Below, in pieces: positions 2,302 to 18,742 of a DNA stretch of 64,000 bases. Below the pieces are notes generated by a model. It did not search any database, was not told where the DNA came from, and worked only from the letters and a program-made list of their open reading frames with translations. Source of the stretch: a virus; IMG/VR virus record IMGVR_UViG_3300037420_000510, positions 325-64,324 of that record. One strand, written 5' to 3'. Position 1 is the first letter of the stretch; each line of letters begins with the position of its first letter. Made by a program: the position numbers and the translations under genes.

Positions 2302-2321
2302 TACTGTATAAATATACAGTA
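2302..2321. promoter_or_regulatory. LexA (SOS) box
   Basis: TACTGTATAAATATACAGTA, CTG-N10-CAG consensus. Confidence 0.92.
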
Positions 2322-2336
2322 TTTTCTAATATCAAG

Positions 2337-3071
2337 ATGACTACCGCAAGCGAACTAGAGACGCTTCATCCTTCGCTTTGGCGAGCGTCCCAACTTGGGC
2401 GCAGCCCGACTCGGTGCGTCGACACCGGGCATCTGGCCCTGTCGAACCACCTACCGGGAGGAGGCTGGCCAGTAGGTACGCTCGTCGACCTACTTGTCCA
2501 GCAGGCGGGAATAGGGGAGATGCGCCTGCTGGCACCTGCGCTGCGGAAGGTGGCCGAGCGGCGTATCGTGCTCCTGCAGCCACCGCACGCGCCACAAGCC
2601 CTGGGCCTGGCCGCGCTCGGCATCTCGCCGTCGAGCCTGCTTTGGCTCCGCGCCGAGCGCACGGCGGATGCACTATGGGCCGCCGAGCAAGTGCTGAAGA
2701 GCGGAAGCTGTGGCGCTCTGCTCTATTGGCCGCAGGGCAACTCTGGCGCCGGCACGCGCATGCAGCACATTCGCAACGACAGCTTGAGGCGACTTCACCT
2801 GGCCGCGCAACACGGCGAGACGCTATTCTTCATGATGCGGCCACTTGCGGCGGCCCAGGATGCCTCGCCGGCGCCACTGCGCCTAAGCCTGCAACCGGCG
2901 CCGGGCGGGCTGAACATTGGCTTTGTGAAGCGGCATGGGCCGCAGCGTGACGAGCCGCTGTTCCTGCCGATGTCGGTTACGACGTTTATCCCGCAACCGC
3001 ATCGTCATCCGATACCGGGACGCGTTGCTCCTGTCGTAAGCGCCGAGCGCAAAAATATGGCGTATCTGTAG
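2337..3071 (+). CDS. imuA: Translesion-synthesis-associated protein ImuA (RecA/SulA-like)
   Basis: LWRASQLG, GGGWPVGTLVDLLVQQAGIGEMRLLAPAL, LWAAEQVLKSGSCGALL, LRRLHLAA, SPAPLRL motifs; LexA box upstream. Confidence 0.9.
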   Translation: MTTASELETLHPSLWRASQLGRSPTRCVDTGHLALSNHLPGGGWPVGTLVDLLVQQAGIGEMRLLAPALRKVAERRIVLLQPPHAPQALGLAALGISPSSLLWLRAERTADALWAAEQVLKSGSCGALLYWPQGNSGAGTRMQHIRNDSLRRLHLAAQHGETLFFMMRPLAAAQDASPAPLRLSLQPAPGGLNIGFVKRHGPQRDEPLFLPMSVTTFIPQPHRHPIPGRVAPVVSAERKNMAYL

Positions 3072-3341: not shown

Positions 3342-4556
3342 ATGCCTACAAACACCCTGACGGATCGCCAGTGCAAGGCCGAGGTGGCGACGGACAAGCC
3401 CAAGAAGCTGTTCGACGGCGGCGGACTGCATCTGTTCATCTCGACCACGGGCTCCAAGACTTGGCGCCTTGCGTACCGAATTGACGGGCGCCCGCAAACG
3501 ATGAGCTTCGGCGCATACCCGACTGTCACTCTTGCGGCGGCGCGTGCGCGGCGCGATGAGGTCAAGGCGATCCTGGCCGAGGGTGGCGATCCGATGGCGC
3601 CGCGGCGCGTGCAGCGTGCCGGCCTTACGCTCGAGCAGGCGTCGGCCGAATTCTGGGCAGGTCGGCGTGACATCTCGGAAAGCTACCGGACGAACGCCAA
3701 GCGAGCGATCGACATGCACCTCGTGCCGCTCCTCGGCAACCGGAACATCGGGAGCATCGAGCGGCAGGATCTGATGGAAGCGCTGCAGGTCATGAACGCT
3801 GCCGGGCTCGCTGTCTACGTCCGCAAGGTCCGCATGTGGATCGGGCAGGTGTTTGAGTGGGCCGTCGAAAACGGCCACGCCAAGATCAACCCAGCCGCGC
3901 TGATCAACCCGCGCAACGCCTTCGCGCGCGCCAAGGTAGAACACTTCGCCTCTGTCGACCTGAGTGAGGTTCCACAGATGATGCAGCGGCTCGCGATCGA
4001 GGAACGGATTCAAAGCGTATTGGCCTTCCGTCTGCTCGCGCTTACGTGGGTGCGTACTGGCGAACTCAGGGCGATGCGATTCAGCGAGGTCGACGGCGCG
4101 CTGTGGCGCATCCCGAAGGAGCGGATGAAGAAGAATCGCGACCACTTGGTGCCACTGTCGCGTCAGGCGGTCGAACTGCTGAAGGTGCTGAAGGAGCGGT
4201 CAAGAAAGGGGGAGTTTGTTTTCCCGGCCGAGCACCGCGACGACCGGCCGATGTCGGAGAACGCGATTCTGGCGCTGCTGGCGCGCATTGGCTACCGCGG
4301 CCGGATGACGGGCCACGGCTGGCGGACCATCGCCAGCACCTGGGCGAACGAAAACGGGTACAACCGCGACGCCATTGAACGGCAACTCGCGCACGCTCCG
4401 GACGACAAAATCCGCGCGGCGTACAACCGCGCGGAATACCTGCCGGAGCGAACTACGATGCTGCAGGATTGGGCCGACTGGCTCGACTCAGTTGAGCAGG
4501 TTGATGCCGGCGGCGAGCAGGGTGGAAACCCGCCAACCCTTCGTGCGGTGGGATAG
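3342..4556 (+). CDS. int: Tyrosine integrase, P4 family
   Basis: Arm-binding N-domain (KLFDGGGLHL...WRLAYR), R-T-G-E, HGWR, QLAH, AYNRAEY. Confidence 0.96.
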   Translation: MPTNTLTDRQCKAEVATDKPKKLFDGGGLHLFISTTGSKTWRLAYRIDGRPQTMSFGAYPTVTLAAARARRDEVKAILAEGGDPMAPRRVQRAGLTLEQASAEFWAGRRDISESYRTNAKRAIDMHLVPLLGNRNIGSIERQDLMEALQVMNAAGLAVYVRKVRMWIGQVFEWAVENGHAKINPAALINPRNAFARAKVEHFASVDLSEVPQMMQRLAIEERIQSVLAFRLLALTWVRTGELRAMRFSEVDGALWRIPKERMKKNRDHLVPLSRQAVELLKVLKERSRKGEFVFPAEHRDDRPMSENAILALLARIGYRGRMTGHGWRTIASTWANENGYNRDAIERQLAHAPDDKIRAAYNRAEYLPERTTMLQDWADWLDSVEQVDAGGEQGGNPPTLRAVG

Positions 4557-16235: not shown

Positions 16236-16264
16236 AGTTTAGAGCGCGCTAAACTCTACGTCAA
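16236..16264 (-). promoter_or_regulatory. pL-like promoter with operator
   Basis: Minus strand TTGACG-N17-TAAACT; palindrome TTTAG-AGCGCG-CTAAA at 16238-16253. Confidence 0.75.
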
Positions 16265-16481
16265 GCAAAATCTAAACGGTTTAGAAGAAAATTTAGCGGA
16301 GATTACAACAGGCGAAAAAAATCCCGCATCGGCGGGTTTGGTCGGCAACAGATTTGCCAGCAGACTTTCCGTGGCTGTTGGAGTCGTGCAACTTTATCAA
16401 CTATATTTCTTTTTCCCTGCTGCTGCAGGGGTAGTATGGACGAGCGAGCGGCACGCTCAGGTGCCGTCATGGGAGACTGAA

Positions 16482-17111
16482 ATGAAGAATCTAGCAATGG
16501 CAGGACTAGCCGTATGCTTCGCTTCCGGATGCGCCACGTCAACCAACTACACTCCACCTGACCAAGTCGCGGTGACCAATGCAATCAGGGTGGACCGGCC
16601 CTTCGATAACGTTTGGGACCAACTCGTCAGGGAATTGAGCAGTGATTTTTTCGTGATAAAGAACATCGACAAAAACTCACGAATTATCAACATATCCTTT
16701 ATGAGTAATAAGCCATCCGACTACGTGGATTGCGGGCGCAGCTTCCATAAATCCAGTGGCATATTTACAGGTGAGCCTACGCAGTACAACACTGCCGATT
16801 CGGTAACTTTCTACACGAATGACCTTCTTGGCCAAGCTTACACTGTCAGGAGGACGACCAGGCTTGAGGGGCGCACTAACATTTATGTCGCACCAGAGGG
16901 GCAGGGCACGAATGTCATTGTCAACACGAAGTATGTATTGGGCATGAATATCGTGACCACAGCATACGACGGGCGTCAAACTGGTCAGGCGTCGACGGCA
17001 ATCGACTTTTCCACGAAGAGCCCGGCGCTACCAACGCCTACCGAAGTCGGTTGTTCGACAAAGGGTGTGATCGAAGGGAAGATCCTGTCATTCGTGAGCA
17101 CGAGGACGTAA
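16482..17111 (+). CDS. Lipoprotein moron (209 aa)
   Basis: MKNLAMAGLAVCFASGC signal/lipobox; GGAG RBS; AT-richer than its flanks. Confidence 0.75.
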   Translation: MKNLAMAGLAVCFASGCATSTNYTPPDQVAVTNAIRVDRPFDNVWDQLVRELSSDFFVIKNIDKNSRIINISFMSNKPSDYVDCGRSFHKSSGIFTGEPTQYNTADSVTFYTNDLLGQAYTVRRTTRLEGRTNIYVAPEGQGTNVIVNTKYVLGMNIVTTAYDGRQTGQASTAIDFSTKSPALPTPTEVGCSTKGVIEGKILSFVSTRT

Positions 17112-17309
17112 GTCACGTAAGATCACTGCGGCACGTCTCTTGCCCGTAGCTGAACGGGCTTTCTCACACTTCCCCTTGAGGTCGCGCGCTACGGCGCGCA
17201 CCTTTGCCGCTCGCGCCATCCTCGCATCTGACTAGCACCGACCAGCGAAGTTCTCTACATTGCCATGGCCACATTTTCGTGTGGTGCTTTGGTTTAGAAT
17301 ACTATACAC

Positions 17310-17329
17310 TACTGTACAAACGTACAGTA
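17310..17329. promoter_or_regulatory. LexA (SOS) box
   Basis: TACTGTACAAACGTACAGTA, CTG-N10-CAG. Confidence 0.85.
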
Positions 17330-17415
17330 CCTTGGTCGGAACAACGCGGCCGCGCCGCCTTTCGATATGACGCCAAAAACATCACATAAGGCTTGCGATG
17401 GACTGGGTGCTCGAC

Positions 17416-17631
17416 CTATGCGAGCAACTGGCGAATCAGTGCCTTCATCTCTGCTATCTCACTGCTTAGTCTGGCGAGTTCATCCGCCCTGAATGAAGCT
17501 TGGAGTCTTTCGACAATCTCGGCATTAAGTGAGATTCCGTGAGAATCCGCTGCAGCCTGAATCTCTTCATTAAGCGCACGAGGCAGGCGAAGGGTCTTTT
17601 TGACTAATTCTTGGTCTTTGGAAATTTCCAT
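17416..17631 (-). CDS. Arc-family ribbon-helix-helix regulator
   Basis: KTLRLPRALNEEIQAAADSHGISLNAEIVERL. Confidence 0.85.
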   Translation of the reverse strand: MEISKDQELVKKTLRLPRALNEEIQAAADSHGISLNAEIVERLQASFRADELARLSSEIAEMKALIRQLLA

Positions 17632-17867
17632 CGCGCGATTTTGCGCGAGCGGAAAAGAAAGTGTTGTTTTTGGTGGCACATATGCCACCAGAATGCGATG
17701 TAAAGAAGCAGAAACGTTTTGCTTTTGAGTATAGTTTCTACATGGAACGCGGACTATTTGGACGCCAAAAGCGAAAGCAAAAGCGGGAATCCCTCTCTTC
17801 TTTCGTCTTTATGGCGTTTGGATTTCTATAGCATTAATTTCATGTTGCCATTCGTACAAGAGACATC

Positions 17868-18101
17868 ATGACCAACAAGATCGAACGATGGAACGCAGCT
17901 TTCGCCACGATGGACGACCGTGCCCAGGACGAGGCGTTGCGAATGGCTGAAGGCCTTGCCAAGGCGCACCCCAAAAAGGCGCGTGCGCGCAAATCGAAGC
18001 TATTAGCTCTCGTTGCCTCGAACTTGGTGGTCAGGCCGGCACAAGGTCTCGGCCAAGCGAAGCAAGTCAGCCCGCCCACGCTCGTCAGTTCCGTGAAATA
18101 A
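17868..18101 (+). CDS. Small protein resembling the repressor C-terminal domain (candidate antirepressor/co-regulator)
   Basis: FATMDDRAQDEALRMAEGL aligns without gaps to the repressor segment FHGTDERGRADLLRLAETL. Confidence 0.6.
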   Translation: MTNKIERWNAAFATMDDRAQDEALRMAEGLAKAHPKKARARKSKLLALVASNLVVRPAQGLGQAKQVSPPTLVSSVK

Positions 18102-18389
18102 CTCGAGCAGACGAATGGCCTGGAGGAGAGTGTCAGGGCCTGGCACAGAGTGGGGAAGGCGAACCATGTTGTGCGGAGCTACAGGCTGGTCATCGGGCAC
18201 AACCACGGTATCCAGGAACATCTCACCCATCCCGTACGTCTGCTCAAGGCGCCGGGCCGCGCGTTCGCCAAAGGGATTGCCCTCCTTGAGGAGCTGGGAG
18301 ATGTAGCTCTTCTCCTTGGGCGGGATGGATCGCGTCGCGAACCACTCGCGTAGCTTCGCGCGTCGGATGTCTTGTATTTGCATCCTCAT
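18003..18389 (-). CDS. CI-like repressor lacking the S24 peptidase domain
   Basis: IRRAKLREW...SYISQLL...FGERAARRLE...FLD N-domain; divergent from a Cro-like gene; only about 128 aa. Confidence 0.8.
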   Translation of the reverse strand: MRMQIQDIRRAKLREWFATRSIPPKEKSYISQLLKEGNPFGERAARRLEQTYGMGEMFLDTVVVPDDQPVAPHNMVRLPHSVPGPDTLLQAIRLLELFHGTDERGRADLLRLAETLCRPDHQVRGNES

Positions 18390-18395
18390 ATTTTG

Positions 18396-18459
18396 ATTAG
18401 CATTCGCTAAACAAGCAAATGCTTGACTTTGCGCGTCTTTGGGTTTAGAGTCAACTAAA
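18396..18459 (+). promoter_or_regulatory. pR-like promoter and two operators
   Basis: TTGACT-N17-TAGAGT (18423-18451); ATTAG-N6-CTAAA (18396) and TTTAG-N6-CTAAA (18444). Confidence 0.75.
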
Positions 18460-18490
18460 CCAGTTAAGTTTTCACTCACCGAGAGACCCC

Positions 18491-18742
18491 ATGAAGCTTC
18501 GTGATTACCTAAATGCAGAGCGCGGCTCGTCGACGCGCCTGGCTGCTCAACTTGAAGTCTCACTGTCTTACCTTTCGCAAATGGCCACAGGGGATGCTGC
18601 TATTTCGCCAGCACGCTGCGTTCTCATCGAGAAGTACACCGATGGCGTCGTAACGCGTCGAGACCTCCGCGATGACTGGATGGACATCTGGCCGGAAATC
18701 AGGTCGACGTCGAAGCAGCAGGCGCGACGCTCGCTGGGCTGA
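18491..18742 (+). CDS. Cro/YdaS-like HTH regulator
   Basis: STRLAAQLEVSLSYLSQMATG...ISPARCVLIEKYTDGVVTRRDLR. Confidence 0.85.
   Translation: MKLRDYLNAERGSSTRLAAQLEVSLSYLSQMATGDAAISPARCVLIEKYTDGVVTRRDLRDDWMDIWPEIRSTSKQQARRSLG

Follow-up and report, generated by a model that had tools for sequence, protein, structure and literature searches.

A small gene overlapping a peptidase-less phage repressor gene: a candidate antirepressor related to the repressor tail

We describe a pair of convergent genes in the immunity region of a temperate, lambdoid phage (IMG/VR record IMGVR_UViG_3300037420_000510, about 60% G+C). The stretch analysed, 64,000 nucleotides (nt) from positions 325 to 64,324 of that record, is called the window, and all coordinates in the text refer to it. 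One gene encodes the repressor in the CI position, and the other, which overlaps its end on the opposite strand, encodes a protein of 77 amino acids (aa) that is here called the mini-protein. Comparison of related loci, structural models and analogy with known systems together make it, in our judgement, somewhat probable that the mini-protein is a small antirepressor of the SinI/AimX type, which would block oligomerisation of the repressor and would itself be held off by a divergently encoded ribbon-helix-helix (RHH) repressor. A preliminary description of this DNA, made from the sequence alone, had proposed the mini-protein as a dominant-negative mimic of the oligomerisation domain in a circuit with a LexA box; the conserved gene, the related hairpin and the strict co-occurrence presented here fit such capping, and the link to LexA found no support. 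To our knowledge, many prophage repressors have no self-cleavage domain and their off-switch is mostly unknown. The features of the gene pair are as follows, with hairpins taken from AlphaFold2 (AF2) models and their predicted local distance difference test (pLDDT) values.

17868-18101, plus strand: mini-gene, the candidate antirepressor gene (77 aa)
17877-17963, plus strand: hairpin of the mini-protein (residues 4-32, helices 4-14 and 17-32; pLDDT 85-91)
17826-17867, plus strand: conserved block (TAGCATTA at 17829-17836) and purine-rich ribosome-binding region just 5' of the mini-gene start, from an alignment of 9 loci
18003-18389, minus strand: repressor gene in the CI position (128 aa), encoding a PaaR2-type helix-turn-helix (HTH) domain at the N-terminus, then a disordered linker and a helical hairpin at the C-terminus
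18039-18137, minus strand: C-terminal hairpin of the repressor (residues 85-117, helices 85-100 and 103-117; pLDDT about 90)
18003-18101: convergent overlap of 99 nt, with the codons of the two genes in exact antisense register
18003-18023, plus strand: L-x-L-V motif of the mini-protein (Leu46-Asn52), on the same bases as the last six codons and the stop codon of the repressor gene

The mini-gene and its protein family

The convergent 77-aa open reading frame (ORF) and its 99-nt overlap with the repressor gene, as first described, agree with the coordinates (17868-18101 against 18003-18389). The mini-gene is present in all 14 distinct related loci, where its length changes in frame (52-104 aa), and it is convergent and overlapping in every locus with this repressor tail, at repressor identities from 93% to 44% (L001-L008, L012, L015, L016, L017 and L018; 73-104 aa). 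Within residues 1-35, which lie outside the overlap, pairwise differences are 0.24, 0.25 and 0.54 at codon positions 1, 2 and 3, and this indicates a translated frame under purifying selection. Because of the in-frame presence in 14 of 14 loci and the coding substitution pattern of the non-overlapping part, we conclude from the comparison that the mini-gene is a real gene. The alternative that the ORF is no gene, and only a by-product frame left open antisense to a G+C-rich gene, is effectively refuted. The exact antisense register, in which stops arise only opposite TTA, CTA or TCA codons, and the last 24 codons, which are shaped by the repressor frame, speak for it, but the first 45 codons overlap nothing, and their coding pattern, the in-frame insertions and deletions and the depth of the family speak against it.

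When a profile of residues 1-53 was compared with 1.84 billion representative proteins, 112 clusters were obtained at E <= 1e-3, nearly all of 41-110 aa and matching from residue 1. The signature of the family is an N-terminal hairpin motif ending in [HY]-P, then 8-10 basic or proline-rich residues, and then L-[R]-L-V. None of 10 sampled members has a functional name, one being called only a "hypothetical protein", and all of them come from metagenome collections; no member was found by tblastn in 50,697 GenBank phage records. Searches with the mini-protein against Pfam, PHROG and NCBIfam gave zero matches, as did a profile search of PDB at E <= 10, while a feature search of the ESM Atlas gave unnamed clusters only, with scores in the chance range. 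In the AF2 model the hairpin is followed by a low-confidence helix and then a disordered tail, and a wide search with this model (Foldseek on PDB and VIA-align) returned only generic helical hairpins, with a best Z of 4.5. A single-protein scan of genome contigs yielded two weak, irrelevant matches only. Tandem duplication of the mini-protein unit inside one polypeptide was observed in P0035, P0101, P0102 and P0109.

Upstream of the mini-gene, a 56-aa ORF at 17661-17831 was considered as a further gene and rejected, as the three codon positions show the same number of substitutions (19/19/19) and the frame is interrupted in L008 and in the L012 group. The frame stays open in four close relatives, and this stretch probably serves as regulatory DNA or as a long 5' leader.

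Repressor tail, shared hairpin and codon register

Homologues suggest that the repressor gene probably starts at 18383, which would give a protein of 126 aa. The first account had noted that the CI-position protein is without an S24 peptidase domain, and this was borne out: a Pfam search with the repressor gave zero matches, the S24 domain included, whereas relatives with the same HTH domain (P0024, P0026, P0027 and the protein of Burkholderia phage vB_E177) carry PF00717. The first ~60 residues match the N-terminal domain of PaaR2 (PDB 7NKV/8C3K), with a phmmer E of 2.5e-19 to 7NKV, 53-60% identity and, by Foldseek, template modelling (TM) scores of 0.76-0.85 depending on the target. The AF2 model, built from a 12-sequence alignment, has three N-terminal helices (residues 3-52), a low-confidence linker (60-84) and the hairpin (85-117). 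This hairpin is kept down to 44% overall identity and also on other HTH domains. The window-type HTH domain, for its part, is found with S24 tails, with a PaaR2-type tail or, in P0025, with another helical tail, and the C-terminal modules are therefore interchangeable. The alignment of the repressor with PaaR2 reaches into the first tail helix with low confidence, and the NCBIfam model of DicA matches the PaaR2 tail and not the window's repressor. Among GenBank phages the repressor HTH was found by tblastn in 4 phages, and a word search limited to the tail returned close relatives only. PaaR2 has no peptidase or autocleavage motif, is an octamer in solution and is insensitive to mitomycin C (PMC8630535). 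By analogy with PaaR2 and with AimC, the repressor opposed by AimX, we infer that the tail hairpin of the window's repressor is an oligomerisation module.

The preliminary description had aligned the mini-protein with the repressor without gaps (8/19 identical), and BLASTP reproduces the match (8/21, pairwise E 0.002). A DNA inverted repeat was considered as the source of this likeness and was excluded, since none was found. With profiles of 12 sequences each, HHalign aligns mini-protein residues 7-33 to repressor residues 93-119 (P 5e-4, score 25.4), and column shuffles of these profiles score 10.7 +/- 2.3 with a maximum of 20.0, so that none of 300 reaches the real score. The broader comparison of 104 mini-proteins with 16 repressor tails recovers the same register over 28 columns (probability 92%, P 5.4e-7, score 29.1); its shuffles score 7.9 +/- 2.1 with a maximum of 16.6, and the real match stands about ten standard deviations higher. 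AF2 predicts a confident hairpin in both proteins, with an x-Asp turn at the aligned position in both. We read the two hairpins as having common ancestry, or at least as sharing a specific structural motif.

The distribution of the mini-gene gives the strongest comparative argument for the two products acting on each other. Three family members were traced to contigs (L022, L023 and L024) and one came from IMG/VR (L038), and these four distant loci share one layout, in which the mini-gene is followed by a convergent repressor gene and then by a divergent cro gene, with overlaps of 30-111 nt between the first two. The repressor of L024 has an HTH_3/Phage_CI_repr domain, whereas in L022 and L023 the N-terminal sequence of the repressor does not resemble that of the window and has no significant family match; in all three the tail keeps the same hairpin motif. 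The pair of tail and mini-gene thus travels with at least two different HTH domains and probably with three. Conversely, the mini-gene is absent from four loci that have the window's HTH domain with another tail (L019, L020, phage Evi and phage vB_E177), of which two have S24 tails, one a PaaR2-type tail and one another helical tail. Since the same tail on other HTH domains comes with the mini-gene and the same HTH domain on other tails comes without it, the mini-gene follows the tail and not the DNA-binding domain.

Another explanation, which we hold to be unlikely, gives the mini-protein a function unrelated to the repressor protein, such as taking over the host, exclusion or an effect on the RHH protein. 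In that case the hairpins would resemble each other through convergence on a common helix-turn-helix-like packing, and the pairing would be kept by overlap linkage only. The short span of the likeness (about 28 columns of amphipathic helix), the lack of co-variation between cognate partners, the generic character of the hairpins from the structure search (Z <= 4.5) and the overlap, which itself forces co-inheritance, would all suit this explanation. It is, however, hard to combine with a profile match of P 5e-7 at ten standard deviations over shuffles. Moreover, linkage spans the last cI codons only, and it leaves unexplained both why a whole tail type, and not the HTH domain, is always found with the mini-gene and why relatives with other tails are without it.

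The overlap itself has a fixed architecture. Leu46, the first Leu of L-x-L-V, is the antisense of the repressor stop codon, and this register is kept in 14 of 14 loci. Read in the mini-gene frame, the changes across clades at the three core codons of the motif are 86 synonymous to 10 non-synonymous; read in the repressor frame, they are 25 to 71. Over the last 24 codons of the mini-gene (residues 54-77), differences are 0.46, 0.18 and 0.35 at codon positions 1, 2 and 3, a pattern in which the repressor frame dominates. Together, these figures indicate that the mini-protein constrains the first 21 nt of the overlap and the repressor the rest (18024-18101). The L-x-L-V motif is thus clearly functional as judged by its conservation, and it may act as a strand added to a complex or as a signal for a protease or an adaptor.

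No terminator lies between the convergent mini-gene and repressor gene, and an antisense contribution is possible for this reason. That the convergent transcript is the working agent, as antisense RNA or through transcriptional interference on cI, with the peptide secondary, is nevertheless quite improbable. The 99-nt overlap and the missing terminator would favour it, and antisense control was the earlier model for aimX according to a preprint (bioRxiv 10.1101/2025.11.23.689978). But purifying selection on the peptide is clear both outside the overlap and across 112 clusters, and stop and recoded alleles of AimX, described in that preprint, show that the protein and not the RNA is required.

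Proposed mechanism and control of the mini-gene

From left to right, the immunity region consists of an early-left promoter like PL of lambdoid phages, a lipoprotein moron, a LexA box, the RHH gene, a 236-nt intergenic region, the mini-gene, the repressor gene, the right operator and promoter (OR/PR) and a cro-like gene. The elements other than the gene pair are the following.

16236-16264, minus strand: PL-like early-left promoter (TTGACG, 17-nt spacer, TAAACT)
16237-16254: perfect palindromic operator GTTTAGAGCGCGCTAAAC, inside the PL-like promoter
17301-17327, minus strand: element with the LexA box (17312-17327), followed on the minus strand by a conserved -10-like TATAGT and a degenerate CI-operator-like site
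17380-17400, minus strand: terminator-like hairpin after the RHH gene
17416-17631, minus strand: Arc/Mnt-like RHH gene (71 aa; PF03869, E 4e-8), transcribed in the same direction as the repressor gene and away from the mini-gene
17671-17690: palindrome TGGTGGCA-N4-TGCCACCA in the intergenic region between the RHH gene and the mini-gene, candidate RHH operator
18395-18460: OR, with two TTAG-N6-CTAAAC operators (18395-18412 and 18441-18460)
18423-18428 and 18446-18451: -35 and -10 of PR
18491-18742, plus strand: cro-like gene (YdaS/HTH_3)

In the mechanism that we propose, the repressor hairpin would form a dimer or higher oligomer, without which the repressor could not bind cooperatively to the TTAG-N6-CTAAAC operators at OR and at the left operator (OL). 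The mini-protein would pair with this hairpin and so take the position of a second repressor subunit, and the resulting heterocomplexes would be incompetent for DNA binding, which would open PR and PL. In the lysogen, the RHH protein bound at the conserved palindrome would repress the mini-gene, as Mnt does for ant in P22. A second silencing could come from the repressor maintenance promoter (PRM), the transcript of which would read through cI, antisense across the mini-gene and into the RHH gene; this is proposed because the cI and RHH genes are co-directional and no terminator lies between them. Once the mini-gene has fired, its transcription would also run antisense into cI.

The Arc regulator named in the preliminary description was confirmed by the PF03869 match (E 4e-8). 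A divergent RHH gene is found in 12 of the 13 evaluable loci, and of the distant loci, L022, L023 and L038 have it upstream of the mini-gene and divergent from it, while L024 does not. The palindrome is perfect and unique in the window, and all loci that have this type of RHH gene share it, even the distant L017 and L038. Reading it as a sigma-54 element was rejected on spacing, from the sequence.

The LexA box had been assigned to the same circuit as the mini-gene. The box is present and is conserved in 8 loci, but its membership of the circuit was not upheld. It lies 540 nt upstream of the mini-gene, beyond the RHH gene and its terminator-like hairpin, and its conserved flank, on the side away from the RHH gene, contains -10-like TATAGT and TAGTGT on the minus strand. 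The box stands before a lipoprotein gene with a good ribosome-binding site in L012 and L016, and in L001 before the lipoprotein cassette that the window has in inverted orientation; in L004 (4266-4300) and L008 (1908-1945) it adjoins the early-left promoter. From its sequence context, the LexA box is part of a separate leftward promoter; as a promoter element of the mini-gene it was rejected on position, orientation and context in relatives. Its place beside leftward -10-like elements and a CI-operator-like site, and next to the early-left promoter in L004 and L008, suggests dual control of leftward early transcription by LexA and CI in this phage group.

A slightly less likely alternative than an unrelated function is that the mini-protein would bind to the tail and serve the repressor as an auxiliary or positive partner, either as a stoichiometric subunit that tunes cooperativity or stability or as an adaptor that delivers the repressor through L-x-L-V to a host protease. 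The same co-occurrence and hairpin relatedness would be expected, L-x-L-V is under strong selection yet would be dispensable for capping, and the tandem duplicates P0035, P0101 and P0109 suggest that the hairpin pairs with itself. Convergence without a terminator and a dedicated divergent RHH repressor, however, fit a gene that is off in lysogeny and not a co-made subunit, and the known analogues are antagonists.

Several points weigh against the antirepressor interpretation. Oligomerisation through this tail is taken over from PaaR2 and AimC, by analogy. The kinship between mini-protein and repressor is visible only from profile to profile and over 28 columns, and the mini-protein profile retrieves no repressor tails at E <= 1e-3 in the library of 1.84 billion proteins. 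Cognate pairs are not more alike than non-cognate ones (permutation p 0.8), which means that no pair-specific co-variation is seen; F or Y at the aligned aromatic position agrees in some cognate pairs and differs in others. The preliminary description had named co-occurrence and co-variation of the pair as checks, and only the first came out positively, co-occurrence with the tail being strict. Simple capping leaves the strongly conserved L-x-L-V unexplained. As to control, no convincing sigma-70 promoter was found for the mini-gene or for the RHH gene, and the analysis revealed neither an inducing signal nor an SOS input for the mini-gene.

On a wider and distinctly more tentative view, the hairpin tail and the antisense-overlapping mini-gene might form a portable off-switch cassette that can be grafted onto any HTH domain and that would offer repressors without an S24 domain a route of induction independent of SOS. 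The gene pair would in addition be a rare example in which two paralogous segments that interact keep one constant sense/antisense codon register. Since the hairpin motif is family-wide and without pair-specific signatures, the mini-protein of one phage might inactivate the same-tail repressors of other resident prophages; if this is true, it would amount to trans-acting anti-immunity or cross-induction among soil proteobacterial prophages.

Known systems and other features of the region

The preliminary description did not recognise the arrangement as characterised, and this needs correction, as SinI/SinR and AimX/AimC are characterised precedents for the mimicry and for the convergent overlapping layout. 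SinI is a small helical protein related to the C-terminal oligomerisation domain of SinR, and their heterocomplex prevents the oligomerisation needed for repression, according to the preprint cited above (bioRxiv 10.1101/2025.11.23.689978). As in this pair from Bacillus subtilis, the small protein of the window is detectably related to the tail of an HTH repressor (HHalign 92%, AF2 register). In contrast, the window proteins have no Pfam match at E <= 1, PF08671 included, SinR/SinI is a chromosomal biofilm switch while the window pair lies in a phage immunity region as convergent overlapping genes, the mini-protein has the additional L-x-L-V, and the hosts are proteobacterial.

In the arbitrium Bacillus phages phi106, phiW23 and BMBtp14 (Kabel et al. 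2025; bioRxiv 10.1101/2025.11.23.689978), aimX (29-80 aa) and aimC are convergent genes that overlap in some cases. AimX heterodimerises with the small helical C-terminal domain of AimC, which blocks oligomerisation and DNA binding and is likened by the authors to SinI/SinR, and the crystal structure of AimC has a two-helix C-terminal oligomerisation domain. The window resembles this system in its small ORF, which is convergent with the repressor gene and overlaps it by 99 nt, and both repressors consist of an HTH domain, an unstructured linker and a small helical C-terminal domain (from AF2 for the window). Unlike AimX proteins, which are reported as highly divergent, the window family has a fixed register with the repressor stop opposite an invariant Leu, and no sequence likeness between AimX and AimC is reported in the text consulted. 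A further difference is that no locus examined has an AimR-like gene, AimR/AimP being absent, and the neighbours in the window are the RHH gene, lipoprotein morons and cro. Control is probably by the RHH repressor in the window, and the protein family is unrelated.

The immI region of P22 (mnt, arc and ant) has an RHH repressor gene divergent from an antirepressor gene and is a second immunity locus independent of RecA cleavage. The window likewise has an RHH gene divergent from the candidate antirepressor gene, with a conserved palindrome, but P22 Ant is large and unrelated, the window locus adjoins and overlaps cI, and no Ant or KilA-type domain was found in the mini-protein in Pfam, PHROG or NCBIfam. 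Non-cleavable repressors are also opposed by LexA-controlled antirepressors, namely Tum of 186, AntC of N15 and GfoA/GfhA of Gifsy phages. Opposition of a non-cleavable repressor by a separate small protein would be common to these and to our candidate, whereas the mini-gene promoter is without a LexA box and the lone box belongs to the leftward promoter 540 nt away. Among regulators of the PaaR2 and DicA type, PaaR2, the CI-like regulator of cryptic prophage CP-933P in E. coli O157:H7, shares with the window's repressor a homologous N-terminal domain and an S24-less helical tail; the PaaR2 tail is longer and weakly alignable, and the genes downstream of it are the co-directional paaA2-parE2 and not a convergent mini-gene. 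Plasmid-like Vibrio phages (Silpe et al.; Qtip) have modules of a transcription factor and a small ORF, the product of which inactivates cI independently of SOS. There, as in our candidate, a regulator gene adjoins a small ORF opposing the master repressor, but the Vibrio transcription factors activate the small ORF while the RHH protein more likely represses it, the families are unrelated, and repressor mimicry is not mentioned in the abstract of that work.

By sequence, the window pair is not a member of SinI/SinR, AimX/AimC, P22 immI or the Vibrio modules. New elements are the protein family, whose relationship to the repressor tail can be detected, the movement of the module between HTH types, a codon register that is fixed in the overlap, and the setting in proteobacterial phages. 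If the mini-protein is indeed an antirepressor, an unannotated family of ~50-aa proteins with at least 112 clusters would be the switch for one widespread type of repressor tail, and the SinI/AimX principle, known from Bacillus, would also apply to lambdoid phages of proteobacteria. The case shows that a regulator encoded opposite a repressor gene and overlapping it can escape gene callers, and the pair could be reused as a compact repressor/antirepressor part.

A nucleotide search of GenBank phages with the locus region gave zero matches, and DNA near-identical to the window is present in soil and rhizosphere metagenomes. The TTAG-N6-CTAAAC-type operator motif has 6 matches in the window against 0.64 expected, and an inverted CTAAAC-GG-TTTAG arrangement occurs at 16271-16288, close to the PL-like promoter. 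Between that promoter and the lipoprotein cassette lies a strong minus-strand intrinsic terminator (16315-16336) with a G+C-rich hairpin and a run of seven T; an A-run on its other flank makes it potentially bidirectional.

The lipoprotein moron cassette (16375-17170), which comprises a promoter region, a gene at 16484-17111 and a terminator, is inverted relative to the otherwise collinear L001 (4170-4990). As a consequence of the inversion, the LexA-box promoter of the window would fire into the cassette in antisense, whereas in L001 it would enter at the 5' end. In L012 (4184-4591), L016 (4398-4802) and L023 (1540-1947), this moron slot, downstream of the LexA box or of the RHH gene, is taken by lipoproteins of a second, unrelated family (about 135 aa, with a lipobox). 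Elsewhere in the window, according to the ORF listing, a 244-aa ORF (2304-3071) is preceded by the consensus LexA box CTGTATAAATATACAG and directly followed by a P4-type integrase gene (3342-4556).

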